Below, piece after piece: positions 50 through 62,351 of a stretch of 64,000 nt of DNA (position 1 is its first letter; the number at the start of each line of letters is the position of its first letter). The DNA is from Lepidodermella squamata (taxonomy: Eukaryota; Animalia; Gastrotricha): contig JBLDXI010000019.1 in the NCBI GenBank assembly GCA_047495785.1, positions 744,001-808,000 of the forward strand, written 5' to 3'. The translations under genes and the position numbers were made by a program. A model generated the notes under the pieces. That model did no database searches. It had not been told where the DNA came from and saw only the letters and a list, made by a program, of their open reading frames with translations.

Positions 50-1643
50 ATGGCCAGAGTTGTTGTCGCGGCTATTATCACTCTTGTTTACTCCGCAACC
101 ACTCAAGGTGATACAAAAAAAATTGAAATTATTTTAAATTATTTTTATGATCTCTGATTATAAGGCCAAATTTGCGACTCGGGTAATTTTATCGATGGAA
201 CGCCTTATTTGAACGGAAATGGCCGTTACAGCCCGCTGCTGCAAATTTTCGCCGATTTGCACTTCACGTGCGCTGGCACTCTAACGCAATGGGGCATCGT
301 TCAACAGGGAAGCGGCGCCGGAACCCCGGTCTATCTCGACGTTTGGCGCCCGTCGCCTGATGGCATTTCTTTCTCCCTAGTCGGGTCGGTTCTCATAACT
401 TCAAGTGTAACCACATCGGGTGTTCAGACTTTTGCTGTCCCAGCTGCCCAGCAATTTCAAGTTCAAATCGGCGATGTAGTAGGCATGCACTACGACAGCA
501 CAACAATCCCGACGAACAAGCTGGTTGTTCCGTTCCTGGACCTGGAAAACGCGCCGGCTACAACGTCGACTTTCATCTGGAAGCTGCAACACAGCGATCT
601 CGCCGGTTTGAACAACGTCGTCAATGGCAACACCGCGGCTGCGGCTAACCAGCTACGTCTACCTGGTCTATTGGCCTATGTTTCGACTACAACAACCCCG
701 TCACCAACAACTACAGCGCTGACGACGAAAACGCCGGTGATCATCGCGACGTCAGGCGGAGGAGGCGGCGGGGTGGCCACCAAGGCGCCGCCTATCATCT
801 TCATATCGATTGGTGGGTTTGGTTTGAATTGGCCCGCGGTTAACACACCACCAAGCATAATCTTCACTTCAACAGCTGCCGCGCTGGCTATGGCGTCTGG
901 TACAATGATGGGGCAAGCGTTTCTCATGGCGGTCGCTAGCATGGTCCTGACTAATTTACCGTAAATTTAATCATTTTTCTCAAATTTTGACTGATTATTC
1001 TAAAACAGAGGCACCGCTGCTCAATCAACAACAATGTCGACCAAAGCTCAGATAAAGGAAGTCTATCAGGCTTTCCAGGATTTGACTGTTGGAGGAACGA
1101 AGGGTGGGATAAAATTACGAGATTTTAAAATGTATTAAGATGGATTTTTTTATTTCAGTTTGGATCATTCTAACCGTGGTTGTCATCGTTGTCAGCGTTA
1201 TCATCATCGTGCTCAGCATTCTCGTATGCGTTGCTTTCAAGCGTCGAAATGCTTATCAGAAGAAAGTGTAAGTGATCCTATAGATTTAATGGATTTTTTC
1301 TCAAAATTTTCCGATTTTCAGCGGCGGTTCCAGCGATGGGCCTTATTACAATTTGCCTAATGGAGTCGGCATTCAAACTGATTTCAACGCGGCTTTTGCT
1401 AAACGTGGCCACAAGGTCGACTCATCGACGATGACGAAAAAGTCGCTGTACCAACCCCCACCACCTATGGCTAAACGCAGCGAAGATTACTACCTACTGA
1501 AGGCGCAGGAACAAGCCCGACGCCCGCCGACACCGCCCCCTGTAGTTGGGACTAACAACACTGGCGGGGTGCCTCAAGTCATTCAAATGCATTTCGGCAG
1601 CGACTTTACGTCGAATGAAAACTCACGCCATCGCCAACATTGA
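50..1643 (+). CDS. Type I membrane protein, family member A (signal peptide, ~150 aa ectodomain, Thr-rich stalk, TM, tail with two LC8-like motifs)
   Basis: GT-AG exons 50-107, 165-960, 1009-1103, 1159-1267, 1322-1643 give one open frame: MARVVVAAIITLVYSATTQ-GQICDSG...LLQIFADLHFTCAGTLTQW...QAFQDLTVGGTKVWIILTVVVIVVSVIIIVLSILVCVAFKRR...GIQTDF...DSSTMTKK...PQVIQMHFG. Confidence 0.85.
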
Positions 1644-2127
1644 GTTCGGGTCGCTTTGAGACATTAATTTCAATTCATTTATAACCCTGAATTATATTCT
1701 TTTCTTCTATCATATGACGTATTCTCGAAATATTCACTATCAGTTTTTTAATGCATCCGAGCAATTTCCGGTGTGAAGAAAATGTGTACTTGAGTTGGTT
1801 ATATTCTATGATTCGGCTACTAATTAAGAACCTTGAATTTGTATTTATCTTTCCCCCATCCACTAATTGGCGAAGCTTTGTAATTAAAATTCTTCTGCTA
1901 TAAGTTCAAATAAAAAATTAAGTGGTCTGTAGAAGCGAGTTCGATTCGGTTTTTTTTCTCCAAGAAAAGTATAACGAGCTGATTATTTGCTCGAGCGGCT
2001 TGTTTGCATTTTGTACACCTGGGCGATGTGATTTTTTTCGTTCGTTGCCGAAAGATATAACAGCTTCGAAAAAGACGATATAGAGTTGTTGCCTCTTCAT
2101 CAAAGGCAGTTCTGAGAACTGTCAATT

Positions 2128-3736
2128 ATGCCTCGTTTCGACCTTTTGATCTTCACATGCTGCGCCGCGGTGGTCTCAGGTGAGATTTATAGGCTTCAAT
2201 AAATTCTGAAAAACATTAAAGCATCTCTGAACAGGCCAAACGTGCGATTCCGGTCCAGCTTTGGTGCAAGGCAATTTTCAAACACCCGCGCTGTTAAACT
2301 ACAGCCCTAATTTACAGCTATTCACCGATCTCAAATTTTCATGCGCTGGCAAAGTCACCCAGTGGGATTACGTCATCTACGGAATGCTGAAGTCGATTTT
2401 CTTCAGCGTTTGGCGCTACGACACGGTGACGCAGAAGATAACTCTAGTTGGCGCTAATCAATTGAACCCGACTACGTCAGCCCTAGGCGTTCAGTCATTC
2501 ATCCCGAAAACTTCGCAACAAATCAGCGTTCTGCCGGGTGATTTCATCGGGTTTTACTATATGGTGATGGAAGACCCAAAGGCCAACAATTCAATTCCTT
2601 ACCTTGACGGGGTTGGGTCTACCACGATCACGTGGCCGTATAACCACGAAATGATCACCGGCCAGAAGTTTGTCCTTGATCCGGCGAAAAGCACAACCGA
2701 GTCGACGAAACACATGCCAGGCTTACGAGCTTTGGTCGTCAGCCGTAAGTTCGAGAGCAAATTTTCCGATCTAATTCACTGATTTTTTCTTCTTTTTTTC
2801 CCAGCCACTGTAAGTGAAAGTGAAATCAGAATTAAGAGACAAGCCCCCCCAACTGTTCCAACTATTAACATCCAACAGATTTCGACCTCGCCGCCCAACC
2901 CTACGTCCACACCACCCGCCCCCACAACAACTGCCCCGAATCCTACTACGGCAGCTCCTCCGAAACCATCAACTCCAGCGCCGCCAGCTCCAACAGTCCA
3001 GCCTAATGTTGTCACCGTCCCTGAGGTCCCTGCTAAAGCAGCGGTCGGGGACCCTTCTACGGCTGCGGTTGTTAATAACAACCCTCCAACAACAGCAGCT
3101 GCTGCTATTGTCACCGATGCGCCAACTGGGCAGCCCGCCGCGGACCCAACTACGGCGATGCCAGCGGTGTCAGACGCGAACCCCAACAGCCCCGCTGCCC
3201 AACAAGGCGGATCGACGAACGCCCCAGCAGCATCCGGGGTTACATCCGGCGGCAACACAGACAGTCCTACTACAACGCTGTCGGCCATACAGCAAATCAC
3301 TGATTTCGGCAAAATGACGATTAATGGCTTCCCCGTGTGGGGCCTTTTCGCCATTGTTTGCGGCCTGGCTGGTGTCATTATCCTAGTTCTGTTGTTCCTG
3401 CTATGCTGGGCATGTGCTAAACCCGCGGCTGCGAAGCCGAACAAAAAACGAGTCCCGGCTGAATTGATGGTCTCCGTAGCGGCTCAGACAGAGTTCGACG
3501 CTGATTTCTATTTCGTCGCGACATTCGACAAATCGACGAATACCAAGCGGGAAGCTTGGTCCCACCCGCAGCCGAAGGAGAATAAGGAGCATCATAAGGA
3601 GAAGGAGAAAAAGTCAGATCACCACCACGAATCGGCGAATAAAGCCGCGCCACTGCAACCACGCCAGCAGCAAACGGCGCCTATCATAAAAATGATTTTT
3701 TCGGGCGACGCCGAGCCGAAAATAATCCACGGCTGA
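2128..3736 (+). CDS. Type I membrane protein, family member B
   Basis: Exons 2128-2179, 2235-2744, 2805-3736: MPRFDLLIFTCCAAVVS-GQTCDSG...LQLFTDLKFSCAGKVTQW, RIKR site, P/T/A-rich stalk, DFGKMTINGFPVW-TM-CWAC, tail AAQTEF...DKSTNTKR...APIIKMIF. Confidence 0.85.
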
Positions 3737-4216
3737 CATTATTGCAAGATCAGCTTTTATTTGGAATTCGCAGTTTGATGTTGTCTTGTTTCAAAGAATT
3801 ATTTTTTCAATTTCAAATTTCTTCTATTACTATTATAGTCTCAAATGCCCTGGTGATTAAGTTATATACGGTGACCCGATTTTTTTTCATTATCATATCG
3901 GTGAATATTTTCTTGTTTTTCTTTCGTTGGATAATAAACATGACCTTTCTAAAACAACGCCACATAGCCTAAATGATTCACTTAAATTTCAAGCGCCAGC
4001 GATTGCGTCATTTTTCATTCGCTCTGCGGCATCGTAGGAGCCGCTTCATGCAAGTCCTATACATAAGCCCAATTGAGGGCGTTGTCGGCGAAGGTCGTCT
4101 TCCCAACTTAGTTTTTTTTTTCGTTATCGTGAAATATGTTACACTTTATCGTGCTACATTATCGTTATCACTTCGGGAAATTAGACTCATTCAGCTGAAT
4201 ATATTAAACGCAAAAT

Positions 4217-5929
4217 ATGGATGAGTTCAACGCGGAGCATTACCGAGCTTTGAAGAAGCTGACAATTTCGATTTTCGGTGATGAGTCAACGTCTGATGTT
4301 ACTTTTATTGTCGATGGCCAACGAATTCAAGCTCATCGAGCAATCTTGGCCGCTCAGTCACCGGTTTTCAGGGCAATGCTCGTTGGAGAGAATTTTCGAG
4401 AGGGAAAATCCCGCGAAATTCATTTGCCAGGCAAACGCGCTGCAGCTTTCGAGGCCTTCTTAAAATACTTATATACTTGTTCGCAAAAGTGGGACCAACT
4501 AGATTTGGAGTTGATTTTGGAAATTTTACGAATAGCTCATGAGTACCAGGTTTTGGGCTTGCTTTCTGAACTCAGCGACCTGCTTCCGACACAGATAAAT
4601 GATGAAACGGCTTTGAAAATCTTCGAAACAGCCCTGTTACTCGGCCACAAGTCACTCCTTGATGCTAGCAGGAAATTTATTTTCGAAAATGCGAATAAAG
4701 TTGTTACAAGTCCTAGTTTTGAACAACTATCAAAACTGGCTGTTATTGCCTTGGTGTCCGACGATTCATTCTGCGCGGCAGAAGTTGGAATTTTACTTGC
4801 TATAGACCGTTGGCAGAAGGCAAATTCGGGCGAGAATGTTCGAGACATCTTGAACCACGTGCGATTTTCGCTGGTTTGTTTCGGTAATATGTCGATGGTG
4901 CAAATTGCGCCGTTGTATCAACTTCTCAACGCAAACAACGTCGATTTGAGTGAGGTGGGTAACACCGGAATAAGCGTCGTTCCACGGAAACAGCCGATTG
5001 GTGCGTTTCTTTTTCCTTTCAATAAATTTCAAATTTGTTTACGTGATCTTTTGCCAATTTGTAATTTCATTAGTTTCCCCTACGCTTAGCATAGCCACAG
5101 AGAAAGCTGGTGCTAATGCTATATACGATTGTGATGCTAGTAAAAGTTCTGGTAAGGTCAACTATATCTTCAGCGCTGGCATAGTCCGCGGCTCCTTCAA
5201 GACTGGTTCGTCTGTTACAACAGACTTGGCGGAAACAATTCGCTGTGAGTCGATGGCATTTTGCATATTTGGCTTTTCGAATGATGATAAGAGCGAATAC
5301 GCTGCGATGACTGTAGATATTTCTAGAGACAGAAAGGAATGGGAGAGAATTGTAAACTGTTCAACGGAAAATTGCCACGGTCTTCAGCTGATAATGTTCA
5401 AATCTCGGACGTTTAAACATGGTAATAACACTAATTTTGCTAGAGCTGGGCATTAAATCATTGATTTTCCGAACTATGTATTATAGCATAGAATTGTATA
5501 ACTAAATACTATAAATCTGAAAAGCTGAAAAAACACTTTTCTTACTTTTCTTACTTTGGTTGTGCCAAATGCTCACCCCAAGTTCAGGGTTTCAGCGCTA
5601 AATTACCAAAAATATAGGTTTTCGAGTTTTTTGTTCTTAAAATTAGCTTGCATTTAGTGTTGGTAGCTCTACTTTTATTTTATTTTGATCTAAATACTTG
5701 AACCCGATCATTTATCACCTCAGTTTATCGTGTTAATTTCTTTGTTTTAGTTAAAATTACTGGGTTGATGCCTGCACCCCGCCAACAGTGCTCAGCGTAT
5801 TCGATCACATCGTTCCAGTGCCCGGCCGAGAAACTGACTGAACAAGATATCGAGCGGTTCAAATCAAGATGCCCTAACGGCGAAACCTTACGTTATCAGG
5901 CTCATGGATCAAATGTTTCTGTTCATTGA
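4217..5929 (+). CDS. BTB-BACK protein with C-terminal discoidin/F5-8-like region (BTBD9-like Cul3 adaptor)
   Basis: BTB motif SDVTFIVDGQRIQAHRAILAAQSPVFRAML; BACK-like helices; exons 4217-5000, 5074-5421, 5751-5929. The C-terminal SIATEKAGA and EWERIVNCSTENCHGLQLIMFKSRTFKHVKITG segments resemble BTBD9. Confidence 0.8.
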
Positions 5930-6070
5930 CCTTAATGTGAAGGAAAAATGTCTCGGAATCGTGCGTTGAAATAAAAGTCCCCGGAGCTGAAACTGAGTCG
6001 CATAAGGGTTCATATATAGAGTACCCCACCTTTTTTGCCACTAAAACTTTGCCATAAATCCGAAATTCAT

Positions 6071-6114
6071 CCTAAACCTATCCCTAACCCTAACCCTAAC
6101 CCTAACACCTAACC
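6071..6114. repeat. Short interstitial telomere-like repeat (CCCTAA)4 with degenerate flanks
   Basis: Four perfect CCCTAA units at 6082-6105, flanked by cctaaa/cctat and cacctaacc. Confidence 0.85.
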
Positions 6115-6552
6115 ATTGATCATCGTTTTGCCAAACGCGCAATAATTGATGAAAATATGTATGAAACAAAACTTCGAAATAATTATTGAAGCATGAACAG
6201 GAATGAAGTAATCATGATATTTTGCTACCTTTAATCCGACTGGCAATTCTTCTATGGCAATTCTGACAATTCTGAATGGCACAGTAACTGAACACGGTAA
6301 CCACAGTAACGAGCTCTCAACTGTGGGATAAATGCTCCCAATAAATATATAAATAAATAAATAATAAATAAATAAACGCTTCATCGAAGAGAAGAAAATT
6401 GGTAGATTGGGATGGACGCTTTGATAAAACATTTTTGGGATAATGATAAGATAAGAAAGGCTTATAATGCTTATACACAGTATTACTATCCCAGAATTTG
6501 TTTGTAAACTTGGTATTTTCCTCGGCAAATTTAAAATTTAACCTAAATACCT

Positions 6553-8015
6553 ATGGCTAGCATTGAAAACAATCCGCTTGCTAGCCATGTCGAAAAAGTT
6601 CTCGACGACTTCTTAACTTGCGTCATCTGCTTCGACCCGCTTACGGACACTCGAATGTGCACGTATTGCTCGAAAATGTATCATTCATGGTGTATTGAGG
6701 GCTGGCTGAAAGATCACGATCCGACATGCCCATCGTGCCGTGAGCATATTGCCGGGGTCGATTACTTACCCACAGTCCGGTAATTATTTTAACTTTCAAA
6801 GCTCTTAAATCTAATAATAAATAAATTTTAAGATGGGTTGAAGAACTGGACAGAAAAATTCGAGCTTTAGCCACTGTTCCAATCTCAATTCAAGCCACAA
6901 GTAACGAAGAATCCGAGGGCAGTAGACGGTCTTCCCGTATCCAGTCGATGGAAATCGTTAATGGGCCTGCTCCCCCGAGCTGGGATAAGCTACAACTGGT
7001 CGAAAATTACGTTCAAGTTGCCCATCGTTGGTTAGTTGCACTGCTGAAACTTCCGAATTATTTACTATCCGTTGCAAGAGACGGAACTGTAACGGTAAAT
7101 TATTGAAATTTTATTGGAAAAATGGTAGAAAATTCTACAAAATTCCAGGCTTTGTCGACATCAGGTGACCAGGCTCCGATTTTTACGACAAAAATTGAAA
7201 TCGAAGGCCCTCCACTCACGTTTGTCTGGCACGCCGCCTATGATGAACGGCGAAGTCGAGTTTTATTCTGTTATCACTACGTCGCTAACATTTTAGCCGT
7301 AATTGGCGCTAATTTGATGCCAGTCGCCATTTACTACGCCGATGTAGCTGCTATCGAGTCGAACCCCAATGGCAAACGTCTCAAAACTAAGCTGCTGTTC
7401 AAACGATCCGATTGGAGCTGTTTAGGCATGGCGATCGAGCGAACGACTGATACGCTGTACTGCGCTGATTGGATTCATGGAAAACTCGGAGTCTGGAAAC
7501 TTTCGATATTAGATGGCAACCAGGCTGCTGAGCCTATCGACGTGATTTGCACGAAAAAATGTCCGAATTCTATCAATCGATTTTACCCAACTCGATGCGC
7601 GATTACGGCGGTTAAATCCGGCGGTTCAAAGTACAGGCTGGCTGTATCGGATTGGTCTAATGACAAAATTCACCTATTCACAGTCTCGTTTTCGCCTGAT
7701 TACTCTCAAATCGATAGCCGTTTTGATACAACCCTAGCGACTTATGGCAGTAAGTTGGGGCAGGTTTACGGGCCTGTAGATCTTCAATTCGACCATTCAA
7801 CCGGCTATTTAGTGGTTTGCGATCAGCGAAATTGGCGGATTCAAGTTTTCGCACCTAAATCGAATGATTCAGGCTATTACGCGTCTATCAGCGAATCGGT
7901 TGGTCAATATTTTTCAGCTGTGGCCGTTGCAAATAATAACAACCAGGAAAAATTCGTCCTAGCTGGTTTGAATGACGGGAAAGTTCGTTATTACAAGGTT
8001 ATTGATCGAAGTTGA
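6553..8015 (+). CDS. RING finger (TRIM37-type) plus NHL/beta-propeller protein, putative E3 ligase
   Basis: Exons 6553-6779, 6833-7094, 7149-8015. RING: CVIC...CTYCSKMYHSWC...CPSC...VRWVEEL. NHL-like repeats: GSKLGQVYGPVDLQFD...LVVCDQRNWRIQVF and LAVSDWSNDKIHLF. Confidence 0.8.
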
Positions 8016-8050
8016 AATTCAAGTAAAATATTTTATTCTCGAAATTTTTG

Positions 8051-10420
8051 TTACATGGTTTCTGCGGCTGGTTCATTTTCATCTGACGGTTCAGGTGGAA
8101 GTTCTGTCACAATAAGTTTGACGACTTTGTTAAATTCGTCCAAAGGTTGGGCGCAAAACGGGCAGAGAGAAACGCCGTGTGACGTAGTTCTAAAAACGAT
8201 ACTAGCCCAGAATCTCGCCGTAGCTGCGTTGACTAAATGACCACAAGGGTTGAAGCAGCGATCAAGCCGTTCATCGCTCATGAAAAAGCTAGGCTCGAGT
8301 GATTCTTGTAAACGGATGAAACGCCCAGGTCGGCGGCAGGCTACGACAGCGCAAGCATTGGGCGGCTGAGGGGCGCCGGTGCCGTCGCGGGTCGCCGTGA
8401 CCACGTGCCCGCATTCGGAGTAAACGCACGGGTGGCAGTTTTTCTCGTTGAAAATTAAAGTAGTCTTCGAGCCGGCACAGCTGACTGATTTTCGTAATTT
8501 ATTGTCGATGAAGCCTTGTTTCAACCATGCCAAGCTCTGAAATTTGAAAGAGGTTTCAAATTTTGAAGGAATTTTGAAAATTTGAAATGTTACAAGGTGT
8601 CCCAGAAATTGCGCAGCCATTTCCTAATTTGGCATAGTATTTTTGTAGGGAATTAAACTATTTTTTAGCAAATTGAACCCACGGAGAAAAAATTCCATCT
8701 GTCATTCGCGATTTTACCGAAGAAATAAAAAATCTACAGGAGGAAACGTGCAAAAACCCGATGGTAACTGTTTCGGTAATTTTCGGTATTTTACCCGGTT
8801 GGATCTAATTTCTCCGGACCTTTTTAATCCCATTAACATGTGTCATACTAGCTCAATATTTTCGTAATTTTTACATTTTTATAATTTTTTCTGACCATGA
8901 GATGCGGCTTCGTCTCTCATTTTAGAGTTTCTAAACTCATTTCCGAGTATTTTCTTTGCTTGCGCTACTTATGGGACACGCTGTATTTTCAGTCATTCGG
9001 GTCATTTTCCAGCATCACTTCGGAATATGTACTTTGCGTGATCCTAATGAATTTTTCTGATTTTTGGGAATTTTGATATCGATGCCCTCCGTGACCTTGG
9101 GATTTTTTATTTTAGTTGCCATCAGCTAGGAAGAAAAATGAAGACTTCTGATATCGGAAAAATCACTGATTTGTAAAATCGATATCGGAAATCGATATCT
9201 GCTCTGCTGGCTGAAGCATATCTCCTATCAGACCGCGCATAGCTCAAAATACGTGCAACAGTGAGATCTTATTGGTTAGGCATGACAATAAAACACTTGA
9301 GATCCCATTGAAACTCGAAATCTTACGTTGGAGCCGCAAATTTAGCGATGGAACCCGAAATTAAAGGTGCGCGCTTGGCACTTCCATTTTACGTTTTGGG
9401 TGTCGATCGAAGTTATGAACTATTTTCAGAATCGATTTACTTCAACAGCTACGGCTACAGAATTTACTCGGCTAAAAAACATTCATTTTTGCTGTTGAAA
9501 TTTGTTGAAATGCCGCAAATTCGATGTAAGAAAATGCGAATTCATACACCCTTGATGCTATACAATATTTGAGTTGTTTACTTTTTACTTACCACAGGAG
9601 GTTGTGAGGTACGCCAATACAAGTGAACTCCGCCGAGATCTATAATGGTCCCCTCAACCAGCGTGTTCGCCTCGTCTATCGCCTCGTCATCCTTGGACGG
9701 CCGCCCCCTCGATTCGCGCACCCTGAAAAGGCGCCCGAATACGCTCACCTCACGCCATTGGTTTGTCCACGATAAATCCCCGCTAGCCCGCATCGAATGA
9801 GCGCCTAATCTCGGCCGGAGGACAAGCACGCCGTTTGAAGTGAACGCATCCAAGGACCCATCGATGCATTCGATAAGGGTTGAAGCGTGCTCACCGATAA
9901 AAATTTTCTGATCCTCGTCGAAAGCGGCGGCGAAAATTCGCGCCACGCCATCCCCTTCCCGCTGCTCAACTAAAATTCGAGCGGCGAAACGCGATACCAA
10001 GGGTATTTCATAAGGCTTCGGTGCATCGACATGGAAATCGATAGCTCTCGAGCTACTACGGCCTAGTTGGTACATTCGAAGATCTTGCGTCCGAATGAAG
10101 GGAACTACTACGTCTTGGCCGTGTTTTTCCAGGTGTATCGTGGCCTGGTTAGCCGGGTCGTTCGCCCGCAATCGGTCATTCTCAGTCGCCATTCGAGCCT
10201 CGATTAACCCAGTTCTTAGGCCATACACAGATTTCGGCTCGTTGAGTACAATTTTAAAATTGTGCTTTCGATATTCATCGGATGAGCCATTCATTCTTAA
10301 AAATTCGAAAATAATAACGGAATTTTCATAAATTTGGAACTTAATTCACCCTAAAACTGAGAGGATTCCATTTTCTGGCTGTGACGTAGTAATTGTCTTT
10401 TCGCGATCCATACTCGACAT
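8051..10420 (-). CDS. Pellino-like E3 ubiquitin ligase (FHA core plus C-terminal RING-like domain), divergent
   Basis: Exons 10420-10350, 10295-9593, 8623-8594, 8536-8051. Pellino motifs GILSVLGMNG, YQLGRS, VSRFAARI, FAAAFD, DAFTSNGVLV, WREVSVFG, CGHV...PCGH...FWA...CPFC. Confidence 0.85.
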
Positions 10421-10853
10421 GACAATATCGTACTGCTTCGTCAAATTAAAAATACTCATTTGACTGGGATAAATCAGCTGAAAACTCGGTTCTTGTTTTT
10501 CTCCAATTCACACACTGGTGAACCTTTCATCTGAGACATTCTTTTTTCCTTTCAGCTTTTGATTTGTGGTAAAAAAAAATGGCCATTTCCTTTGACTGGA
10601 CGGCAAAGCAGTATCTATAGCTATAAGGCGGGAAAAATTATGATTGCAAATATAGCGACCAGGTGGTCATCAGCACGGCACGCGATTAGCAAAAAGTGGA
10701 ATATAGACCAGAAATTAGACACGCGTAACGGCACAATGTTGGCCACGTGTTGCTGAGTTTCGTGGTTTAAAAGCTGACATTTCACCGCAGTCAAATCATC
10801 ATTTTACAAACATTTTAGTCAAACAGCCTTGTTTTATCCTTTAGTTGGTCGAA

Positions 10854-11993
10854 ATGTTTTCGTCAGGTGCGCATTTTTTGCTGAATTTTTTTGCATGAAA
10901 AATCGGTTTTATTACAGGTGTCCTTATTGCGCTGATGGTGTGCGCAGTTGCCGCGAGGCCGCAGCACAAGTTCCGCTTCGAAGAGCGCGATGCTGAGGGC
11001 ATTTCAGAAACCGTCCAAGTGTCAGTTGGCGCTAATAACGACAACAACACCGTTGTCACTGATAGCGTTACCGAGAACAACGGAACAGCGGAAAGCGGCG
11101 TCAACGTCGAACTGGTCCGAGCGAACGCTAGGCTGACTCCGAACAACAACAACCGCGCGATCGCTGACGGCAGGAGGACTCTATCGACTGATCGCAATAA
11201 CTTCATTGGCCGAAAGACCGAGACTCCGATCTATGTTATCCCTGAGTCTGTCTGGGCGCGTTTGTTCGGTGGCTACGGCGTCGATGAATACGACTACTTC
11301 AACCAGCAACGTGGCTTCTTCCCGCAACAGCGCAACTTCTACAACCAAGGCAACTTCGGCTACGTCCAACCTGGCTACGGCTACCCTGGCTTCGGTCAGA
11401 CCCCGGCTTACGGCTACGGTGCTCAGGGCTACGGTCAAGGTGGTGCTTTCGGTGGTCAAAACTTCCGCGCTGGTTACCCTCAGGGTGCTGGTTTCTTCCA
11501 GGGACAGGGTTACCAAGGAGCTGGCTTCCAACCCTTCACCGGTCAGGGTTTCCAAGGACAGGGTGCGGGTTTCCAACAATTCGCTGGACAGGGTGCTGGC
11601 TTCCGTAGCTACCAGGGTGCTCCAGGTTTCGGCGGTCAGGGTGCTGCTTTCCAGGGTGCTCCGGGATTCTTTCAGGGTGCCGGTTTTCAGGGAGCTGGTT
11701 TCCGTCAGGGCGCTCCCGGCTTTGCTCAAGGCGCCGGTTTCCAAGGTTTCCCAGGTGCTCCCGGCTTCGCCCAGGGTGCTGGCTTTCAGGGCTTCCAGGG
11801 TGCTCCCGCGTTCGGTGCTCAAGCTGGTTTCCCCGGCAACCCGATGATTGGTGCTGGTTCTGGTTTCCGCGCTGGTCTCCCGAACGGCTTCGGCGGCGCC
11901 CGCTTCGCCCGTCACTACCTCGGCCCGAACCGATTCTACCGCCACCTCGACGATGACGAAGAAGAACACGACCACGACGAAATCGATGATTAA
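10854..11993 (+). CDS. Secreted Gly/Phe/Gln/Ala-rich low-complexity protein
   Basis: Exons 10854-10866 and 10918-11993 give signal peptide MFSSGVLIALMVCAVAA. Many QGAGF/GAPGF repeats; acidic and His-rich tail RHLDDDEEEHDHDEIDD. Confidence 0.8.
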
Positions 11994-12204
11994 TTTATCT
12001 CACCAGACTTTCAGTCAACATTTTATCGATTGTTCAATCGTGATTTTTTAGCCTTATTCTTACGATGATGATGATAATCTATCTGTAAAAAATTGCCAAT
12101 AATCGAAACATTTTAATAAATAAAACACAAAATTGGCAAGGATATAACGTCTGTGTGTTTTTGTTTTATGAACGTGGGAAATATTGCGCGAACGCTGTGC
12201 GCAT

Positions 12205-12225
12205 TTCCTTCCGCAGTTTATTTGC
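12205..12225 (+). promoter_or_regulatory. Conserved upstream element TTCCTTCCGCAGTTTATTTGC (copy 1, before member C)
   Basis: Identical 21-mer at 14125-14145 and a 19/20 match at 15383-15402; lies ~100 bp before the ATG at 12326. Confidence 0.7.
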
Positions 12226-12325
12226 GCGTTAAATTCGTCCAACTGTTCGCGAAGGTAAATAATTCGAATCACCAGCGCGCAGTGTGTAATCTTTTTATCA
12301 AGGTTGGTGATAATATACCGAAAAA

Positions 12326-13881
12326 ATGAGAGAAAGGAAGAAGTTATCACTAATAACCGTCGTCGCACTTGCTGCACTTGCACCTGCTGCTTATGGTGAG
12401 TCATTTCAATTTCTTCAAAAATCTTATTTAGTTTTTCAATTTTATAGGCCAGGTTTGCTATTCGAGCCCTCCGATCAATGTAACGGCGTTCCAATCACCC
12501 GCCGTTCCAACCTATACGTCCCTGCTCCAAATTTTCGTCGACTACCAATTCACGTGCGCCGGGGTTGTTACGCAATGGGAGTATCTCCCGACCAAGAAAA
12601 GCTCAACAGCCGAGGCGGTATTCTTCGGCGTTTGGCGCCTAGTCGGTACTCAATATCTGCTGATGGGCGCCGTTCAAGTCACGCCGGCCTCTCTAACGCC
12701 TAACGTCGTAAACACAATAACGATTCCGGTGGCGAATGGAATACCTGTCGCTCCTGGGGACATGATAGGTATGCATTACACGGAGGGGCTGCTCCTACAG
12801 GAGCAAACTATGGTCATCTCATACGTTGGGATAACCAGCGGCGTCACACTACCCCTACCATCGCGAACTCTTGTTTGGATGTATGGAAATAAGAACATTT
12901 ACGATTCAGGCGGATACGTCGATTCTACCATGGGCGCTTCGATAGCGGATAACATTCGCATTCCGGGTCTTAGGGCTCAAGTCTCGCCAGTTCCAACAGT
13001 CCCAATGGTGGTGCCAACGACTACTACGGTGATTCCTGTAGTAAGTACGGTCGACACCAAGCAGGTGTTAGTTCCTATGGTTTCGCCTGGTTCGACAACC
13101 CAGGTGCCGATGACGACCCCGGCTCCGACCCCGGCCCCGGTCACCGTGCCTGAAGTGACGGCGCCACCTACAACCAGCCCACCGGCGCCAACTACAACGC
13201 CAATGGCGCCGTCAACTCAACCGCCGACTACGGCCGCGAACCCGACAACAGTGATCAGCACCCAGGCCCCTACCACGGCACCGCCCGCGGCCGTCCCGAC
13301 TGCGGCAGCCCAAGTTCAGTCAGCTACAACATCTTCGACCAACAACGACCTGTTGCAACAGTTGTTGAATTTGAAAAACATGGCGCTTCAATTCGGGGAC
13401 TACACCGTTAATGGCACCCCGGTTTGGCTGATCACCCTTATTGTTAGCCTGGGGCTGTTGGCAATTATCGTACTACTCTTAGTGCTTCTGTGCTACGCCT
13501 GTTGCTGTCGCAAGAGGACTCCGTGAGTTGATCAATTTTTTTATAAATTATTTGTAAAAAATATTTGATTTTTTCAGCGTTACACCAGAGTTAGTGAAGC
13601 CTCCATCTCTAACGATTGATTCCCAGACCGATTTCCCGTACCGCCTTACAGCACCGGTGATGATTGACCGCGGCATGAACACGAAAAGATCGGCGTGGGA
13701 AAATTACGAGAAGCAACGGAAAGCTAAAGCTGCTCCGAAAGAGGAAGCGCCACCGCCGCCTGCACCCGAACCCGCACCCGCGCCCATGTTCGAACCGCCG
13801 CCGCAGATCATCCGGCTTCACTTCAACGGCATGGCGCCTTTCGTCGGCGCCCCGGAATACATGCATCCTAATGCTATTTGA
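12326..13881 (+). CDS. Type I membrane protein, family member C
   Basis: Exons 12326-12395, 12448-13522, 13578-13881: signal peptide, GQVCYSS...LLQIFVDYQFTCAGVVTQW...VAPGDMIGMHY...IPGLRA, Thr/Pro stalk, QFGDYTVNGTPVW-TM-CYACCC, tail DSQTDF...DRGMNTKR...PQIIRLHF. Confidence 0.85.
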
Positions 13882-14124
13882 ACTATATAATTATTGGAAA
13901 ATCTTCATCTTTTATCACCTTACTGGATCTCATACTGTTGTTCTATTCTATTAAAAGCCCCGTGATGGATTTATTTTTCATAGCTTAGCTGAAACTTTTC
14001 TTGGAATAAAAACTTGATGGAATCTTGTTGTATGACGTCATTCGTCGCAGAAGTGTAACGCAGCAAATCGTTGTCCAAATTTCTGGTTGCAAAAAATGAA
14101 AAAACCAGCGAGAGAATTCCACAC

Positions 14125-14145
14125 TTCCTTCCGCAGTTTATTTGC
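14125..14145 (+). promoter_or_regulatory. Conserved upstream element (copy 2, before member D)
   Basis: Exact match to 12205-12225; a CRE palindrome TGACGTCA lies at 14033-14040. Confidence 0.7.
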
Positions 14146-14311
14146 CCAATCCTGGAGCGTGTTAGACAGGAATTTTTATTAAATTTTTCGGTAGCTCACA
14201 CGATTTGTTTGCTTTCTGTTCTCTATCATTTTTTTGCTGTTGATTTTTTTGTGTTGGATTTGAAAAACTTGGAAGAAAAGAGCTGTGAATTAGACAGGCG
14301 CAGCTCGAATT

Positions 14312-15097
14312 ATGCACCAGGATTTGGCGCTGACCATCGCCTTCCTGGCGACCGTTATTGGCTCGATTGAAGCCCAACAACTTCAAGCTGACCTTCAGGC
14401 CGCTCTTGACTTTGCAAGCTACAAATTCGATAACGGATTCCCAGGTAAGAGAAAGACTCAAAGATGTTGCTCAAAGGCTGGAAATTTTACTTTTCATAGT
14501 CTGGGGAGTTGTGGCGATTGTTGGAGGCGTTACTGGCCTTATCATCTTGATTCTACTGATTTTGCTATGCTACGCATGCTGCTGCCGAAATAAGGGGAAT
14601 TCGGAAGAGTAATTTTTTCCAAATATTGAATGCTCAGGAATCATCCTTAAAATTCCTTCAGAAGCGAGAGATTGATTCGCAGGAGAGCTCCAGGTGAACT
14701 TGCGGAGATGGATTGTCAAACCGAATTCGCGCCCGATTCGGCTTATGTAGCTTATACTGATACAGGTACGATGACTAAGAGAAACGCGTGGCGCACCAAA
14801 GCGACGGAGCCTGCGCCGAAAAAAGCGGCTCCCGCACCGCCGAAAGAGGCCCCGCCACCTACTGAGCCCTGTCCAGCATATCGGACGCCGCAGATTGTTG
14901 AGCTGCACTTCGGCGATGGCACTTACATGACGGCGGCGGTTCCTCGCCCTCCCCCGCCCACGCGCCCACCACCACCTGCACCTACAACACCCAGTTCGGC
15001 TACGTATCAACACCCAGCGCCTCCTCAAGCCGCTTACTACCCGTATGCAGCAACAGGGCGGCCTTTCAGCTATCACATGCAGCCGCATTACTATTGA
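14312..15097 (+). CDS. Type I membrane protein, family member D (minimal ectodomain)
   Basis: Exons 14312-14444, 14500-14608, 14662-15097: signal peptide, ~23 aa ectodomain ending DFASYKFDNGFPVW, TM, CYACCC, tail DCQTEF...DTGTMTKRNAW...PQIVELHFG, Pro/Tyr-rich end. Confidence 0.85.
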
Positions 15098-15382
15098 GAG
15101 AAAAATTGCAGCTTGAAACTAAAAATTCAATATAATCATTATTCTTATAAATTTCCTTTTCATCAATTTCTATCATTGTTTCGAAAATACTTGAGACGTA
15201 ATTTGCTGTTATTTGTCGTTTAACGAATTTCAAATAAAATTAATTATTTTTGGAATCTTGAACTTATTTTTTGGCTCATCCAGGGGTATGATTCATGTTG
15301 GAATCTGATTTGCGCTACGGTTGTTTTCGTTCTTCCGAATTTATTGCGAATTTTTTTCGATATTGCCTGACGAAACTAGACA

Positions 15383-15402
15383 TCCTTCCGGAGTTTATTT
15401 GC
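15383..15402 (+). promoter_or_regulatory. Conserved upstream element (copy 3, before member E)
   Basis: TCCTTCCGGAGTTTATTTGC, one mismatch to the other copies; ~98 bp before the ATG at 15500. Confidence 0.65.
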
Positions 15403-15499
15403 TGAAAAAAATTAATCTGACGCGCAAGGTGCTGGCTGTTTTTTCTCACCATTATTCTGCTGTTTGATACCTTACTGACGAATTTGTTACAAAAGCAAT

Positions 15500-16132
15500 A
15501 TGAACGTGCTTAAGGGTAACTACCTTTACTTTAGCCTAGCTATCCTAGGCCTTACGTTTCTGTTGGACTATCATATCGCGTACGTCTTGGATCTGTCATT
15601 TCTTATAATATCGAATTTGAATGAATTTAATTACAGTAGCGTTGAAGCTCAAAGCAGTACCACGGTTTCTGCCCTGACCCTCCAAGCTTTCACAGATCTG
15701 ACAGTCAATGGAACGAAAGTTTGGATCATCTTGGTCGCTGTTGGAGGCGTTGTTGGAGCGATCATCATCGTTCTCCTCATCCTAGTTTGCTGCGCTTTCG
15801 CTCGACGCGGATCAAAAGTGTAAGTTACTAGTTTTAGGCTGGATTAGCAAAACTGAAATTTCCATCGCAGCGGCCCACCCGGTGTTGAGTCAGGCTCAGC
15901 TGGGCACTATGTAGTCGACCCTGAACGATTCCCGTCAACCGAAGTCCAGACAGACTTCCACCCAGGCTTCTCGAGCCGCGTTATTCAAAAATGCGACGCT
16001 GCCACGATGACGAAGCGCACACTGTGGTCGGGCATCCCTGAGCCGCCACCGGAGGAGCAAGCAACTGAGGAAGAAAAGGCCGCTGATGCTGAGGCTATCG
16101 CGGCTTATCTCAGCCATCCACACGAGGCGTAA
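15500..16132 (+). CDS. Type I membrane protein, family member E (minimal ectodomain)
   Basis: Exons 15500-15579, 15637-15819, 15871-16132 (first intron is 57 nt and in frame): ...SVEA-QSSTT...QAFTDLTVNGTKVW-TM-CCAF, tail TEVQTDF...DAATMTKRTLW. Confidence 0.8.
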
Positions 16133-37368: not shown

Positions 37369-40300
37369 ATGCCTATCGCTCATTTGGCTGAGCCATTTCG
37401 GCAAGTACACTACGATGAAGTGACCGAGGTGAGTTATATCCTCCTTAATTTTTTCCTCGACCCACCTACGCACGGGCAATAAACCGCCCTCTTGCGCTGA
37501 TGATTTTTGAGCGCTTTGTTTGATCAGCTTTTGCGCGACTCACGTCATGATAGTTTAATATAATATGCCAAATTATTTCGCTAAATTTCTACATGCACTC
37601 GTGTTTAAGCGGCGGGATGATTATGAAAATGAGCTTTTTTATTCTCTTCCCGAAAAAACAACAGTCGAACAGTATGGAAGAAATTTCGAGCGGAGCTGTG
37701 TCGACCAGCAGCAACCAGCAGCAGCGGGCTCAACAGCAGTTGCAAGTCCAGCAGTCCGGCGGCGGGGGTGAAAACCGAATGTCTGTGACCAAGGAAACAA
37801 TTTCCGAAGTAAGTGCATTTTTTAGCCTCAAAGCGTGTTGATTGTCGCGGCCTATGCGATTGCGTGAGATGCCACTTGAGTCACGCACGCGGCCGGAATA
37901 CGACTCGTCATTGACTTATATATATGCATTATATAGGTATAGTGCCTTTTAACTTAAATATAGCGTAATTACTCGGGCTAACCGACCCCGCGCTCGTAAA
38001 AACCAACTAAAACGACGCGTCATGTGGCGCCCAAATAATCATCCTAATAGTTTTCTTGCTAAAATGAGCTGAAGTGGTAAAAATTTACGCTCCGGTGCTA
38101 ACCGGCTATGTAAGTGCTGCTATTAGTCTCTATCATCATCATCATCGGCGATTAACGACTTTGGTCAAATTTCTAACAGGTAAAATTTGCGATTTATCAA
38201 CCTCTCCATTAGCCGTATCTGATTTCATTAAACCGGGTCAATTTTTCATCTCGTAATTAATGCTAAGTACTACAAGACATCTTGGAGCATTCCCATTAAA
38301 TTATCGTTTGATTGAATGTAAGGGAAGGTTTCTACTCTTGTATCGTATTTTTGCTATAATTCGTTTTTAATATCTTACGCTAAAATGTGCGATCTGAGCC
38401 TCTTTTCTTTATATTTATATATTCGCAGTTGATTATTTGCGTGATTTTTTATTTTCATCCCGTAAGTTTCCGTTACTCAACTTTCTATATAGAGTCCTTT
38501 CGTCACATGACGAGCCTGATTCACTCATTGTCTCGGCTCGTCAAAAATTTAGCCGCGCGCGTTTTTGACCTTGCCAAATTTTGAATTTTGTTTCTCCGAC
38601 AATCTACGATTTTATGACCTTTCCAATTTATAATTGACATTTTCATGCTTGTGGTATACTATTAAACAAAAAGCCAGGCTAAATTTACAAATTCATAATC
38701 TTGAAATGCTTGTAATAATGAATGAATGACACGATTTTATGTAGGAAACGTATTTTTTTACTGGAAGTTAAGCCTTTTCATTCAGTGTTTTTTTTACCTC
38801 AGCGATACGAACAACGTAGGCTCTTTTAATTAGCATTTTTTAAGGTGGAATCTATTCCCACGATCGTAGGCGTCGTAAGGCGTCGTTTTTTTGAATTGAC
38901 TATTCTTTCGCGACTTATTAGAAGTTGTAAATGAGTGAAACTTTACGAAAGCCTGTTGCTGCTGATGCTTGTGTATTTTTATATAACCAAAAACCAGCTT
39001 TTGCTCACAGCGGCGTAACAACGACACATCGTTCGTTCGTTCGCTCGCTGCTTGCTGTCGTGCCTTTTTTGTTGCCGCGTGTGTATTCATTAGCAAAGGC
39101 AGCGCACGTTAAGTAATAATAATAATGCTGTCCTTTCGGCTTGAAGAATTCGCCTCTCGCCTTTACTAGCAGGTATATATATACTTTATACCTGTCACTG
39201 CTACACCAAATGCTATATGACGAGAAGGCATTATCTAACGCGAAGGGCTCGCCTACTATATTATTTGACAAGCCGAGATGTCTTCATCGCTGTTCTCCTG
39301 CTTCATTGTTGAAAAGTTTTTCAAATAGACGCTATTAAACCCACGCTATCTTTTTTACGAAAACAATTTGCCCACTTCCAGCCAATCCTTTCTGATAAGC
39401 ATCTTAATCTTCGTCTTAGATAAACATGATGAAGCGAAGCCAAAACTGACCTGTTGCTTCCTTTTTAGCGATTTCACCTATTAACCGATTTAATTTAGCT
39501 CAATTTTTACCGCTGCTGCTCCTGCATAATCAGTGCAAAAAGGACCCGCCAGCGCCGCATTTTTACGCGCCAGCTCACATGTCCTTTTGCACCTTTCTCT
39601 TTCGGAGTTCAATGAGTCGTTGTGACAACAACAATACTACTAATAACATTGCTACTGACCAAATCGAAGATGTCTGTGTTTCTATTTTCAACTTCAACCT
39701 CGTCAACGGTGTCGACAATATCGACCATCCCAACCCGATGCATGGCAAGAATTCACCTACTACTATTATTACGCCTAATGGCCATTATTCTAGCAAAAAG
39801 TCCGATGAGGAATTCTTGTTAATTGATTCTTATGATCGCCCTCAAAACGTATTTAAATTAAGATAATTAGTTATTTTTTTTTCGATTTTTACAGCTAATT
39901 ACTCGAAATTGTTATTCTAATTTTTTGATGCATTTTTCAGATGGACGACGAGCGGGAGTTTGATGTGGCTTCGTTCGCGAAAAGCTCCGAAAAATGCGAC
40001 CCATCCCAATTTCAGTTGCTACGCGTTCTCGGCCAGGGCTCGTTCGGCAAGGTGTTTCTAGTGCGAAAAATCGCGGGAACGGACGCAGGGGCACTCTACG
40101 CCATGAAGGTGCTGCGCAAGGCCACGCTCAAGGTGCGCGATCGCGTTCGGACCAAACAAGAACGAGACATTCTTGCAGATATCAATCATCCGTTTATTGG
40201 TGAGTTTTTGTGTTATTAAGGAGGATTTTTTCCGAAATTTTTATGCCTCAGTGAGCTTGAGGTCTAACTGAGTGCAAATGGACGTTGGCATTTTGTAACG

Positions 40301-43300
40301 CTCGATTAACCTTGCGTTTTTATTTGTAGTGCATCTACATTACGCCTTTCAAACTGCTGGAAAGCTGTATCTTATCCTCGAATTTTTGCGCGGAGGCGAT
40401 TTGTTCTCGCGCCTTTCACGCGAGGTCATGTTCACCGAGGAGGACGTCAAGTTCTACCTGGCCGAACTGGCGCTCGCCATCGGCCACCTGCACTCACTCG
40501 GCATTATATATCGCGACCTCAAACCTGAAAACATTCTGCTCGACGTAGACGGCCATATCAAATTGACAGATTTTGGCCTGAGTAAAATCTACGATACCGT
40601 CAGATCGGTCGGCAATTCGACGTCGTCCGGCGGTGACCAGTCTGTTAGCTCGGATTTGACGTACAGTTTCTGCGGCACTGTCGAGTACATGGCGCCTGAG
40701 GTTGTTTCTCGGAAGGGCCACGACCACGTCGCCGACTGGTGGAGTTTTGGCGTGCTCATGTACGAAATGCTGACCGGGGCGTTGCCATTCCAAGGGAAAG
40801 ACCGCAAGGACACGATGTACCAGATACTCAAGGCGAAACTGGCGATGCCGCAGTTTCTGAGCTCGGAGGCGCAACAACTGCTGCGGGCGCTGTTCAAACG
40901 CACGCCGCAAAACCGGCTCGGCTTCGGCCCGCACGGCCTCGAGGACATCAAGAAGCAGGCGTTTTTCAGAACAATCGACTGGGAAAAGTTGATGGGGAAG
41001 GAGCAGACCCCGCCTTTCAAACCGACAATCAAACCCGACGAGACGTTCTACTTTGACTCGGAATTCACGAGCAAAATGCCGACAGACTCGCCCGGGGTGC
41101 CGCCGAGCGCTGCCGCGAACGAGCTGTTCCGCGGCTTCAGCTACGTCGCGCCGATGCTGCTCGGCCACCACGGCGGCGAGCTGACGGGCGAGGCGGCGAT
41201 AAGCGCGACGAAAGAGACGGGCATGGTTGTTGCGCCGCAGTCGAGCGGCCAAAGCGGCGGCGGCACCCAGGTTCACCTGCCGGTGGACCCGCTCAACTCG
41301 CTTCCAGGCGTCAAGGCCACGCAGTTTCATGACGACTACGACATGGGGCCGGCGCTGGCCGAGGGCGCGTTTTCCGGCGTCTTCCGGTGTACGCACAAGC
41401 AGAGCGGCGGCGAGTTCGCTGTCAAGGTGATTGAGCGGGCGCAGCGCGAGCCCACCGACGAGGTTGAGATCCTGCTGCGCTTCGCCGACCAGCCGAACAT
41501 CGTGCACCTGCGGGATGTTTACGTCACTACAGATCGTGTCTACCTTGTTACAGAACTGGTGAGTCTTTCAATGGAGAAAAAACTTCTCACGGCTTTCAGC
41601 TGCTGTGATACTGTACTTATCACTTCATGGCTGTTCCCCCTCTCATTGTTAGAAGTTTTTTTAGTGCCACGTTAAATACATGTGTTGAAGGAAAATTTGG
41701 GCTAAATATAAGAATGTTAGTCCGTATAAGAAAAAAACCCTTCCATTTGAGTCAGATTTTAGTCAAAATTGTCAAGAAATTGCAATTGTAACCAAGTAAA
41801 TTCTTAATATTGACTCACATAAGAGCTTCATGGTTAGATTAGAAAAGAAAAAGGCGGATAAACTTGCAAAAAATTGATTATTTTATGCAGTGTCCTATGA
41901 AAGCTAGGCCATTTATCTGGTACTACGAAGGGATTAAGAACGGTTTAGCTAGGAAACTCGTGCAGAAAAGATGCTTTGTTCCTTATGTGAGTAGAAAATT
42001 TGACGCAAAATGGTTGATTCATTTTTATTCTAGCCTGCCTAGGATAGCCAAAAGCATATGACACATAATTTATTTAAAAATTGAAACTTGTTATTTTTAG
42101 TCGAAATAAAAATGTTCAAATTTTTAAGAGGGATTATACAGAAAATCAACGCCCACGCAATAAAAATAATAAAAATGTATAAATAGGAACAGAAAAATGA
42201 GTTGGTACACTGAATATTTTGTAAACCGGACTAGGATAGCGCCGGGTAAAATTGTCCAGTTTAGGGCTATTCCAGTCTAAATGACCAAATTTGCTATATG
42301 AGCCTCTGCAAGACTCACCTAGATTCGTCCTGTTTTAATAAATTCCGTTTTTGACGACTCCGGTTTACACAACTTTCACTGTATTTGATTTGATTTAAAA
42401 TGATAGGATTTGATAGGAATTTCTCTGCTTTTTATGGCTAAAAATAATGTCTTTTTTTGTTTTTCTCAGCTGCGGGGAGGAGAGCTTCTAGATCGTATTC
42501 TACGGCAAGGGCACTTGTCCGAGTACGAAGCGGCGCAAATCGTCGCCGTGCTGGCGCGAGTCCTCGACACCCTGCACAAGAACGGCGTGGCGCACCGCGA
42601 CTTGAAGCCTTCTAACGTCGTGTACGCCGACCAGTCGGGCACGCCGAATTCGCTGCGGCTGTGCGACTTCGGCTTCGCGAAGCAACTGCGCGCCAACAAC
42701 GGCCTTCTCATGACACCGTGCTACACGCTGGCGTACGCGGCGCCCGAAATCCTCAAGCGGCAGGGCCACGACACCGCGTGTGATATTTGGAGTCTCGGCG
42801 TCCTGCTCTACGTGATGCTGTCCGGCCAGTCGCCGTTCGCGTACACAGCCGAGGACTCGGCGGAGCAGATCACGCGGCGCATCGCCTCAGGCACGCTGCG
42901 GCTGTCCGGCGGCAACTGGGACACGGTGTCGATGCAGGCCAAAGACCTCGTCCAGCGCATGCTGCACACGGACCCGTCGCGGCGCATCACCGCCGAGCAG
43001 ATCCTGCTGCACGCGTGGGTGCAGAACCGCGAACAGCTGCCTCGGGCGACGCGGGCGAAACTGCAGCAGACGGGCAGTCTGCCCATGGCGCCGCCGCCTC
43101 CGGTCGCCCAGCAGCAGCAGCAGCACCAGCAACAACAAGCGCCTTCGCAACAACAGCAGAACCACCAGTTGAAAGCCGCCGTGGCCGCGACATTCCGCGC
43201 CGTGAACGAACCGGTGCTGCCGCCGCTGAAGGCTGTTGACAATTCCGATTTGGCAGCGCGGCGCCGCGGCCGGCCGCTGCAGCAACTTCGAACCACTGGC

Positions 43301-43342
43301 CAAATGCCGGGAATAGTCAACACAACTGCTCCGCCGCATTAA
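37369..43342 (+). CDS. RPS6KA: p90 ribosomal S6 kinase (RSK, two kinase domains)
   Basis: First exon 37369-37428 [10 protein letters not shown] resembles the RSK N-terminus MPLAQL; exons 39941-40199, 40330-41558, 42470-43342; [12 protein letters not shown] and YSFCGT; linker TDSP and FRGFSY; [12 protein letters not shown]; ERK dock LAARR. Confidence 0.95.
42208..42381. mobile_element. Degenerate Tc1/mariner-type MITE in an RSK intron
   Basis: 23-bp TIRs with 4 mismatches (CACTGAATATTTTGTAAACCGGA versus the reverse complement CAGTGAAAGTTGTGTAAACCGGA), TA flanks, 174 bp. Confidence 0.6.
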
Positions 43343-44973: not shown

Positions 44974-45216
44974 GACGCGTCGTGGCCACAGCGATAAGCT
45001 AGTTTTTTCCACACAAAAATGGGCCGCATAGATAAAAAATGATAATGCCCACTCTATTCTACGTTAATTACCTGCCATGCCTACCCGAATAGCAATTAAA
45101 CAAACAACCATATCTATGGGAAAAAATAATGAATGAGCTCTAATCACATCCTTCCTTGCTGATAAGTAGAACAACTGCTGTTACTTATTGAATTTTCTTG
45201 GCGAATTCAAGCGAAA

Positions 45217-62246: not shown

Positions 62247-62351
62247 TTCAAAGGCTGAAGAGGTGAGTGCAATGTGGCATGAAAATAAAATATCCTCCTT
62301 AAACATAAAAATTCGATCTATTCGATTCTCTTTTTTCTAACCAATTTACCT

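Follow-up and report, generated by a model that had tools for sequence, protein, structure and literature searches.

Five paralogous single-pass membrane proteins of the gastrotrich Lepidodermella squamata with two candidate LC8-binding sites in every tail

We analyzed a window of 64,000 nucleotides (nt) from Lepidodermella squamata (assembly GCA_047495785.1, contig JBLDXI010000019.1, positions 744,001 to 808,000 of the forward strand; all coordinates below count from the first letter of this stretch). Five paralogous spliced genes, which we name A to E, lie on its plus strand within positions 50–16132, and they encode products of 174–497 amino acids (aa) with no internal stop. Every protein has a hydrophobic N-terminus, a conserved signature just before the membrane, one strong transmembrane (TM) segment and a tail of 92-152 aa, in agreement with a first-pass annotation that had proposed a single-pass family here. 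Every tail has two motifs 18–20 residues apart, site 1 of the general form x-Q-T-[DE]-[FY] and site 2 of the general form D-x-x-T-[MN]-T-K-[RK]-x-x-aromatic. Judging from sequence, the best explanation is that both sites bind LC8 (DYNLL), so that A–E would be bivalent LC8 clients forming 2:4 complexes like those of GKAP or SAO-1. We give this reading a probability of about 0.6.

Two conserved motifs in the tails

The ten sites, all quoted in the first-pass annotation, are present and in frame as the following 8-mers.

Gene A, plus strand: site 1 NGVGIQTD at 1359-1382; site 2 VDSSTMTK at 1416-1439; anchors 19 aa apart
Gene B, plus strand: site 1 VSVAAQTE at 3470-3493; site 2 FDKSTNTK at 3524-3547; anchors 18 aa apart
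Gene C, plus strand: site 1 LTIDSQTD at 13609-13632; site 2 IDRGMNTK at 13663-13686; anchors 18 aa apart
Gene D, plus strand: site 1 AEMDCQTE at 14702-14725; site 2 TDTGTMTK at 14756-14779; anchors 18 aa apart
Gene E, plus strand: site 1 PSTEVQTD at 15932-15955; site 2 CDAATMTK at 15992-16015; anchors 20 aa apart

The motifs lie 20-31 residues past the end of the TM segment, in a tail without a Pfam match. We report motif counts over nine sequences, the five of the window and four outside relatives described below (P0001, P0003, P0005 and P0020). The near-duplicates P0014, P0021 and P0022 do not enter these counts, nor does P0002, which has no tail. At site 1, Q at position 0, T at +1, D/E at +2 and F/Y at +3 are each found in 9/9 sequences, the residue at -1 is never charged, and that at -4 is never a large hydrophobe. 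At site 2, S/G/A at -2, M/N at 0, T at +1, K at +2, R/K at +3 and an aromatic at +6 are found in 9/9, T at -1 in 8/9 and D at -4 in 7/9; Gln at 0 is found in 0/9. Taken together, all 18 sites have T at +1, an uncharged -1 and Q/M/N at 0, and none has an internal Pro or a large hydrophobic residue at -4. The residue at -1 is T/V/I in 12 of the 18, and a single site (in P0005) has an aromatic at -2.

These are the positions that matter for LC8, a protein with more than 100 clients that is seen as a dimerisation hub and whose clients use the same groove as the dynein intermediate chain (PMC6607443). The preferences reported for its motif are buried residues at -1 and +1, a polar residue or Asp at -4, a small residue at -2 and an acidic residue at +2 (PMC6607443, PMC3078936), with D/E/P preferred at +2 (PMC6607443). 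Conservation in the tails peaks at these key positions, which bears out the description of the sites as LC8-like in the first-pass annotation; their departures, no Gln and always Lys+2 at site 2, had been understated. The preferred D/E/P at +2 occurs in 9/9 sequences at site 1 and in 0/9 at site 2 (Lys in 9/9). The preference is not strict: both Arg and His are seen at +2 among measured binders (PMC12057147). Met and Asn are known substitutes for Gln at 0 (PMC5746249). The 62 measured 8-mers tabulated in PMC12057147, which match the LC8 motifs cited in the first-pass annotation, include IQT (Pac11, Nup159, 53BP1), VQT and SQT anchors, as well as TMT (Myo5a, ASCIZ) and D-K-x-T-N-T (KIBRA/WWC). 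We favor LC8 because the conserved positions match its reported preferences and because measured binders share these anchors.

Among 20,000 shuffles of each tail, the tandem pattern turns up once at most, with patterns that were made after the motifs had been seen; four of the five real tails match, and E misses the site-1 pattern by a Pro at -5. Neither single-site pattern is present in 8,152 aa of 26 other open reading frames (ORFs) of the window, nor in the five ectodomains. The tails of A–E are paralogues and therefore not independent occurrences.

Other classes of short motif do not fit. The docking consensus for TRAF on receptors of the TNF-receptor type is PxQxT or [PSAT]x[QE]E, and we rejected it here: Q stands directly before T in 9/9 sequences, and -2 is never Pro. 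An ATM/ATR phosphosite has S or T directly before Q; this candidate was also rejected, with S/T at -1 in just 3/9 site-1 sequences. No C-terminal PDZ-type end common to the family is present.

Gene models, protein architecture and relatives

The evidence for transcription comes from cDNA-like contigs of sequencing runs X2 and X3, with SMART-type adaptor and poly(A) ends. The gene models, with the exon joints seen in these contigs, are as follows.

Gene A, plus strand: exons 50-107, 165-960, 1009-1103, 1159-1267, 1322-1644; 459 aa; joints 960/1009 and 1267/1322
Gene B, plus strand: exons 2128-2179, 2235-2744, 2805-3736; 497 aa; joint 2176/2232
Gene B, alternative form, plus strand: micro-exon 2805-2809 and exon 2879-3736; 474 aa
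In-frame intron of B, plus strand: 2810..2878, 69 nt, GT..AG; spliced form in one X2 contig
Gene C, plus strand: exons 12326-12395, 12448-13522, 13578-13881; 482 aa; joint 13522/13578
Gene D, plus strand: exons 14312-14444, 14500-14608, 14662-15097; 225 aa; both joints, 5' adaptor at 14225, poly(A) at 15255
Gene E, plus strand: exons 15500-15579, 15637-15819, 15871-16132; 174 aa; both joints, poly(A) at 16291

The contigs skip eight of the 12 introns in the models, each with GT..AG ends, and they bridge the junction into the tail exon in all four genes that have one (A, C, D and E); the TM segment and tail of B are encoded on a single exon. Intron 1104-1158 of A is supported indirectly by a loose contig end that reads the end of the preceding exon, and intron 2745-2804 of B by an X2 contig that joins 2744 to 2879 via five letters matching the micro-exon 2805-2809. 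None of the joints listed covers the first intron of A or of C. An intron-less first exon for E was ruled out by a cDNA-contig joint. Genes A, C, D and E have in common a phase-2 intron directly after the TM segment. The GT..AG introns of the window are about 50-60 nt long, as in a compact animal genome.

The listed coding differences point the same way. Of 47 that we classed (27 from the 40 listed of 347 rows, and 20 from 22 further rows), 44 are synonymous, against 25% expected. The five that are listed inside the motif 8-mers are all synonymous, and D has four synonymous differences at or just past site 2. The family is under purifying selection. Together with the splicing joints, these differences back the reading frames given here, and the idea that transcripts read the tail exons in another frame, raised in the first-pass annotation as a way for the proposal to be wrong, fails.

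The signature before the TM segment is F-x-D-x-T-[VI]-N-G-x-x-V-W, and the segment ends in cysteines and basic residues. By hydropathy only, the N-terminus looks signal-like, and by composition and hydropathy only, the tail is predicted to be disordered. The hydrophobic N-terminus and the basic residues after the TM segment suggest a type I topology. A, B and C each carry, ahead of a mucin stalk rich in Ser, Thr and Pro, a domain some 170 residues long (33-34% identity) in which a Cys pair is conserved. The ectodomain of D is only about 25 residues long, and its tail is Pro-rich; that of E is only about 35 residues long. In the stalk of A there is a moderately hydrophobic stretch of 55 residues (about 790-960, plus strand), kept in the cDNA-like contigs and absent from B and C. 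Its hydropathy is 1.46 versus 3.62 for the TM segment, and it is unlikely to be a second TM segment. The 474-aa spliced form of B lacks an R-x-[KR]-R site, the only such site among the five proteins. Retaining 2810-2878, as in the predicted form, would add this furin-type R-x-K-R between the jelly-roll domain of B and its stalk.

The ectodomain of A–C likely has a lectin-like jelly-roll fold, to go by structure models. The better model is a beta-sandwich of low confidence (predicted local distance difference test, pLDDT, of 58), and a second model is worse (pLDDT 53). With the pLDDT-58 model, Foldseek gives no match at E<=0.001. VIA-align of the same model yields phage and viral jelly rolls and, at or near the head of the ranking, the Cwp84 lectin-like domain (Z 8.2; root-mean-square deviation, rmsd, 3.5; 113 residues aligned), an F-type lectin (Z 7.8, rmsd 3.6, 117 aligned) and CBM62 (Z 7.1). 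These galactose-binding-domain-like jelly rolls (Cwp84, F-type lectin, CBM62, PHR) resemble the modelled fold of the ectodomain; they differ in that they have only 3-14% identity to it, and the Z scores are near a level common for unrelated sandwiches. In the ESM Atlas, 30 of 30 matches to the ectodomain are unnamed clusters, of which the top three, at 0.96-0.97, come from sponges and annelids. Independently of the model, Lectin_like and PHR stand there among the nearest clusters with a name, together with DUF4082 (0.87-0.88). No Pfam family matches the ectodomain, and an alignment of it against longer proteins matches 0 of 7,995. That the domain binds sugar is a guess.

The first-pass annotation had suggested searching other genomes with a profile of the TM segment plus tail. 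Run against 1.84 billion representatives, such a profile gives 13 matches at E<=0.001, of which four are true relatives (P0001, P0002, P0003 and P0005), and a second search, with three matches among 4,395 candidates, adds P0020; all are ENA records. The other nine of the 13 were rejected, as they lack the motif pair and match on TM and cysteines; P0010, which has a lone TMT-like stretch, is one of these. P0001 (400 aa) has the whole architecture, including an ectodomain matched with probability 99.6, and its site 1 is a canonical TQT and its site 2 reads K-A-T-M-T. At 42-47% identity, P0003 and P0005 are similar to A, and an extra block R-[KS]-S-E-D-Y-Y is common to all three. In the tail of A this block lies at about 1475-1500 (plus strand) as R-S-E-D-Y-Y-x-L-K, is kept in P0003 and P0005, and could possibly be a tyrosine signalling or sorting motif. 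P0002 has only the pre-TM signature and the TM segment, with no tail. Both P0020 and P0002 diverge at the same post-TM position, which suggests that they read through an intron there. The four relatives with tails (P0001, P0003, P0005, P0020) all keep both sites. A tree of the nine TM-plus-tail rows separates A, E, P0003 and P0005 from B, C, D, P0001 and P0020 with support 99/99, so the short-ectodomain form occurs in both groups.

The first-pass annotation did not recognize the family as a described one, and neither do our searches of Pfam, PDB sequences and the ESM Atlas. At the Pfam cut-off, neither the window exons nor P0001, P0002, P0003 and P0005 match a family. The PDB sequence search returns 20 weak matches (best E 0.029), nearly all on the TM segment; the ESM Atlas matches no described family. 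A word-index search with the TM segment and tail of B finds none among 83 candidates, with a sensitivity that is low, since P0001 was missed. Two loci from a metagenome scan match the TM segment only and were rejected. LIME1, TMIE and stannin have a short ectodomain, a single TM segment and juxtamembrane cysteines, as D and E do, and they are the nearest Atlas clusters; at 0.88-0.89, under 0.9 and with low recognition (1743), they are leads only. TMIE matches the family on the TM segment alone (E 0.07-0.27). Membership among transmembrane adaptors of the LIME/LAT type or in TMIE was rejected, with no Pfam profile match at the cut-off. By these sequence comparisons, the family is not homologous to any named family that we tested. 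It may be lineage-specific, as the first-pass annotation proposed, and the small number of matches agrees with this; its ectodomain, taken alone, resembles the unnamed sponge and annelid clusters noted above.

LC8 binding weighed against other explanations

If both sites bind LC8, the tails, predicted to be cytoplasmic and disordered, would bind two LC8 dimers per pair of chains (2 chains : 2 LC8 dimers). This would keep the paired chains next to each other and in register, at a distance of 20-50 residues from the membrane. Site 1 would be the stronger and would nucleate the complex; site 2, weaker and of the TMT/TNT type, would bind by avidity, aided by membrane confinement, and its T(+1)-K-[RK] is a possible kinase switch. 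In A–C an O-glycosylated stalk would present the predicted lectin-like jelly roll, with adhesion or the sensing of glycans as its probable role; D and E, nearly without ectodomain, may be adaptor-like partners. LC8 would act as a dimerising hub, not necessarily as a link to the dynein motor. The "LC8 ladder" of the first-pass annotation is a generous name for two sites.

Known clients offer partial precedents. In ASCIZ (PMC5963919) and KANK1 (PMC12803091), adjacent sites rescue weak TMT/TNT sites. LC8 complexes tend to form in register, and binding falls when residues close to the anchor are phosphorylated (PMC12017986). GKAP (DLGAP1) has two close non-canonical sites with a 17-residue linker, acts near the membrane and forms a 2:4 complex with LC8 in which flanks up to +14 of the second site take part (PMC12797016). 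The linker here, of 10-12 residues, falls between the solved cases (3-9) and GKAP. Unlike A–E, whose sites sit in the tail of an integral membrane protein and have xQT plus TMT/TNT anchors, GKAP is described as a soluble scaffold with IQV/VQV anchors (PMC12797016); we claim no homology. C. elegans SAO-1 with DLC-1 (PMC9630320) and the yeast Pac11 and Nup159 sites (PMC12057147 table) are further cases in which tandem sites give 2:4 complexes, with CQT (SAO-1) and IQT anchors; these proteins are soluble, with shorter linkers and neither TM segment nor ectodomain. KIBRA/WWC, Myo5a, ASCIZ QT3 and KANK1 have D-x-x-T-[NM]-T anchors as in site 2. In the first three, the last residue of the tabulated 8-mer, at +2, is D/E; site 2 of A–E runs into K-[RK]-x-x-aromatic instead. 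All four proteins are soluble, unlike A–E. LC8 clients are mostly soluble, and integral membrane clients that bind through a cytoplasmic segment are described too: Kir4.1, with a peptide that bound only when dimerised (PMC11999606), and p54/E183L of African swine fever virus (PMC9950752). These are a channel and a viral envelope protein with, in the accessible accounts, one site each, in contrast to a cellular paralogue family with lectin-like and mucin ectodomains. Tandem LC8 sites and membrane LC8 clients are already known; a single-pass family with tandem LC8 sites is not described in the literature that we searched, most subscription papers lying outside its coverage.

Several observations weigh against LC8 binding at both sites. 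Only seven of 19 high-scoring predicted peptides bound LC8, and the peptides STQTDF (EPAS1) and AAQT (IRS1) failed to bind in isothermal titration calorimetry (PMC6607443). When all the LC8 position rules that we coded are applied, 4/9 site-1 and 0/9 site-2 sequences pass. Lys+2 is found in 9/9 site-2 sequences versus 0/62 rows of the measured-binder table, and the same rows do not include the AQT (B) and MNT (C) anchors either (0/62; PMC12057147 table). Several anchors look weak on sequence. Beyond the LC8 8-mer, F/Y+3, [RK]xx[WYF] and the third motif described below are just as conserved, and LC8 does not account for them. The nine sequences are related, so that motif counts are not independent, and confidence is low in both ectodomain models (pLDDT 58 and 53).

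The invariance of Lys+2, the absence of Gln from site 2 (9/9) and a conserved block that runs to +6 would also be expected if only site 1 binds LC8 and site 2, with K-[RK]-x-x-aromatic, is phosphorylated or docks another partner, such as a basophilic kinase or a beta-strand-binding adaptor. Basophilic kinases favor the pattern S/T-x-R/K, which T-K-[RK] fits. We consider this explanation unlikely: D-4, small -2, T-1 and T+1 put site 2 in the exact LC8 register, its central residue is only ever M or N, both known substitutes for Gln (PMC5746249), and in GKAP the flanks of the second site take part in LC8 binding as well (PMC12797016).

A second explanation takes the blocks as Thr-rich beta-strand look-alikes, a family-specific surface for self-association or for another partner, with LC8 bound at neither site. 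The many TQT-like peptides that fail to bind (PMC6607443) speak for it, as does a third motif that is similarly conserved and not LC8-like; we find it quite improbable, because two separate blocks both match a single register (acidic +2 in the first site, Asp-4 in the second) and because the outside relative P0001 has a canonical TQT. A third explanation is that LC8 binds but, rather than dimerise the chains, ties them as cargo to the dynein motor for trafficking or transport in cilia, as proposed for p54 (PMC9950752) and discussed for the surface levels of Kir4.1 (PMC11999606). This is very improbable, given that clients and the dynein intermediate chain use the same groove of what is now seen as a dimerisation hub (PMC6607443) and that a tandem pair of sites would occupy both grooves in register (PMC12017986).

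Bivalent LC8 binding, our preferred reading, could be part of a wider scheme. All paralogues keep both sites at matched spacing, so LC8 could pair A–C chains with D and E. A combinatorial surface-receptor system, in which LC8 is a general pairing clamp that zips A–C with D and E into homo- or heterodimers, tuned by a kinase switch at site 2 and by splice-controlled shedding of the B ectodomain, is a picture that we regard as unlikely.

Other features of the locus and significance of the family

Near the end of the tail there is a third motif, [IV]-x-[LMI]-H-F-x-G, present by pattern in seven of the nine sequences, with P0005 aligning too. The PP1-docking RVxF motif was rejected as its identity, since the RVxF consensus misfits most members. 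A 19-nt element (family D9) is found upstream of C, D and E, in three exact matches in 64 kb versus 0.02 expected; three matches are reached in 0/100 shuffles. It sits 80 nt before the cDNA 5' end of D, resembles, when read on the minus strand, a Forkhead site next to an ETS site, and is likely a promoter element; being common to C, D and E, it suggests co-regulation. The family is not contiguous, with four unrelated genes between B and C.

Third motif, plus strand: in the tails of A, B, C and D, for example 13799-13824 and 14886-14911; also in outside relatives, missing from E
19-nt upstream element, plus strand: 12207-12225 (before C), 14127-14145 (before D), 15384-15402 (before E)
BTB-BACK gene between B and C, plus strand: 4220-5456
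RING and beta-propeller-like gene between B and C, plus strand: 6550-8015
Pellino gene between B and C, minus strand: 8051-10345

Also between B and C, 10855-11993 (plus strand) encodes a repeat protein rich in Gly, Gln and Phe that looks secreted and ends in an acidic, His-rich stretch; it has no Pfam match and is spliced at 10863/10915. A high-copy repeat at 8750-9200, inside a Pellino intron, has a summed contig depth above 10,000 in run X1 and is probably a mobile element; a short run of telomere-like CCCTAA repeats lies at 6066-6116, between genes. Elsewhere the window has Forkhead, PP4R3, LCAT, kinase, ligand-gated channel and C-type lectin genes besides Pellino. An RSK-like two-domain kinase gene is followed by two more copies with a single kinase domain (40299-47775, plus strand), one ORF encodes four tandem near-identical C-type lectin domains (54466-56367, minus strand), and long uninterrupted GNAT and DUF4419 ORFs lie at 61059-63518 (plus strand).

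LC8 is expected in any animal. Motif scans find no LC8 gene in viral contigs, and eukaryote-type LC8 genes found in bacterial-assembly contigs (L003, L004 and L006-L010, one contig having three copies) are probably eukaryotic contamination.

What is new here, as far as sequence can tell, is an animal family of single-pass surface proteins with a conserved two-site tail and no described match. It places an unnamed animal jelly-roll domain in a receptor context, and its tails are short and suited to standard peptide assays. If both sites do bind, the family would show LC8 used as a receptor-pairing device, and a Lys+2 variant would be added to the rules of the LC8 motif.

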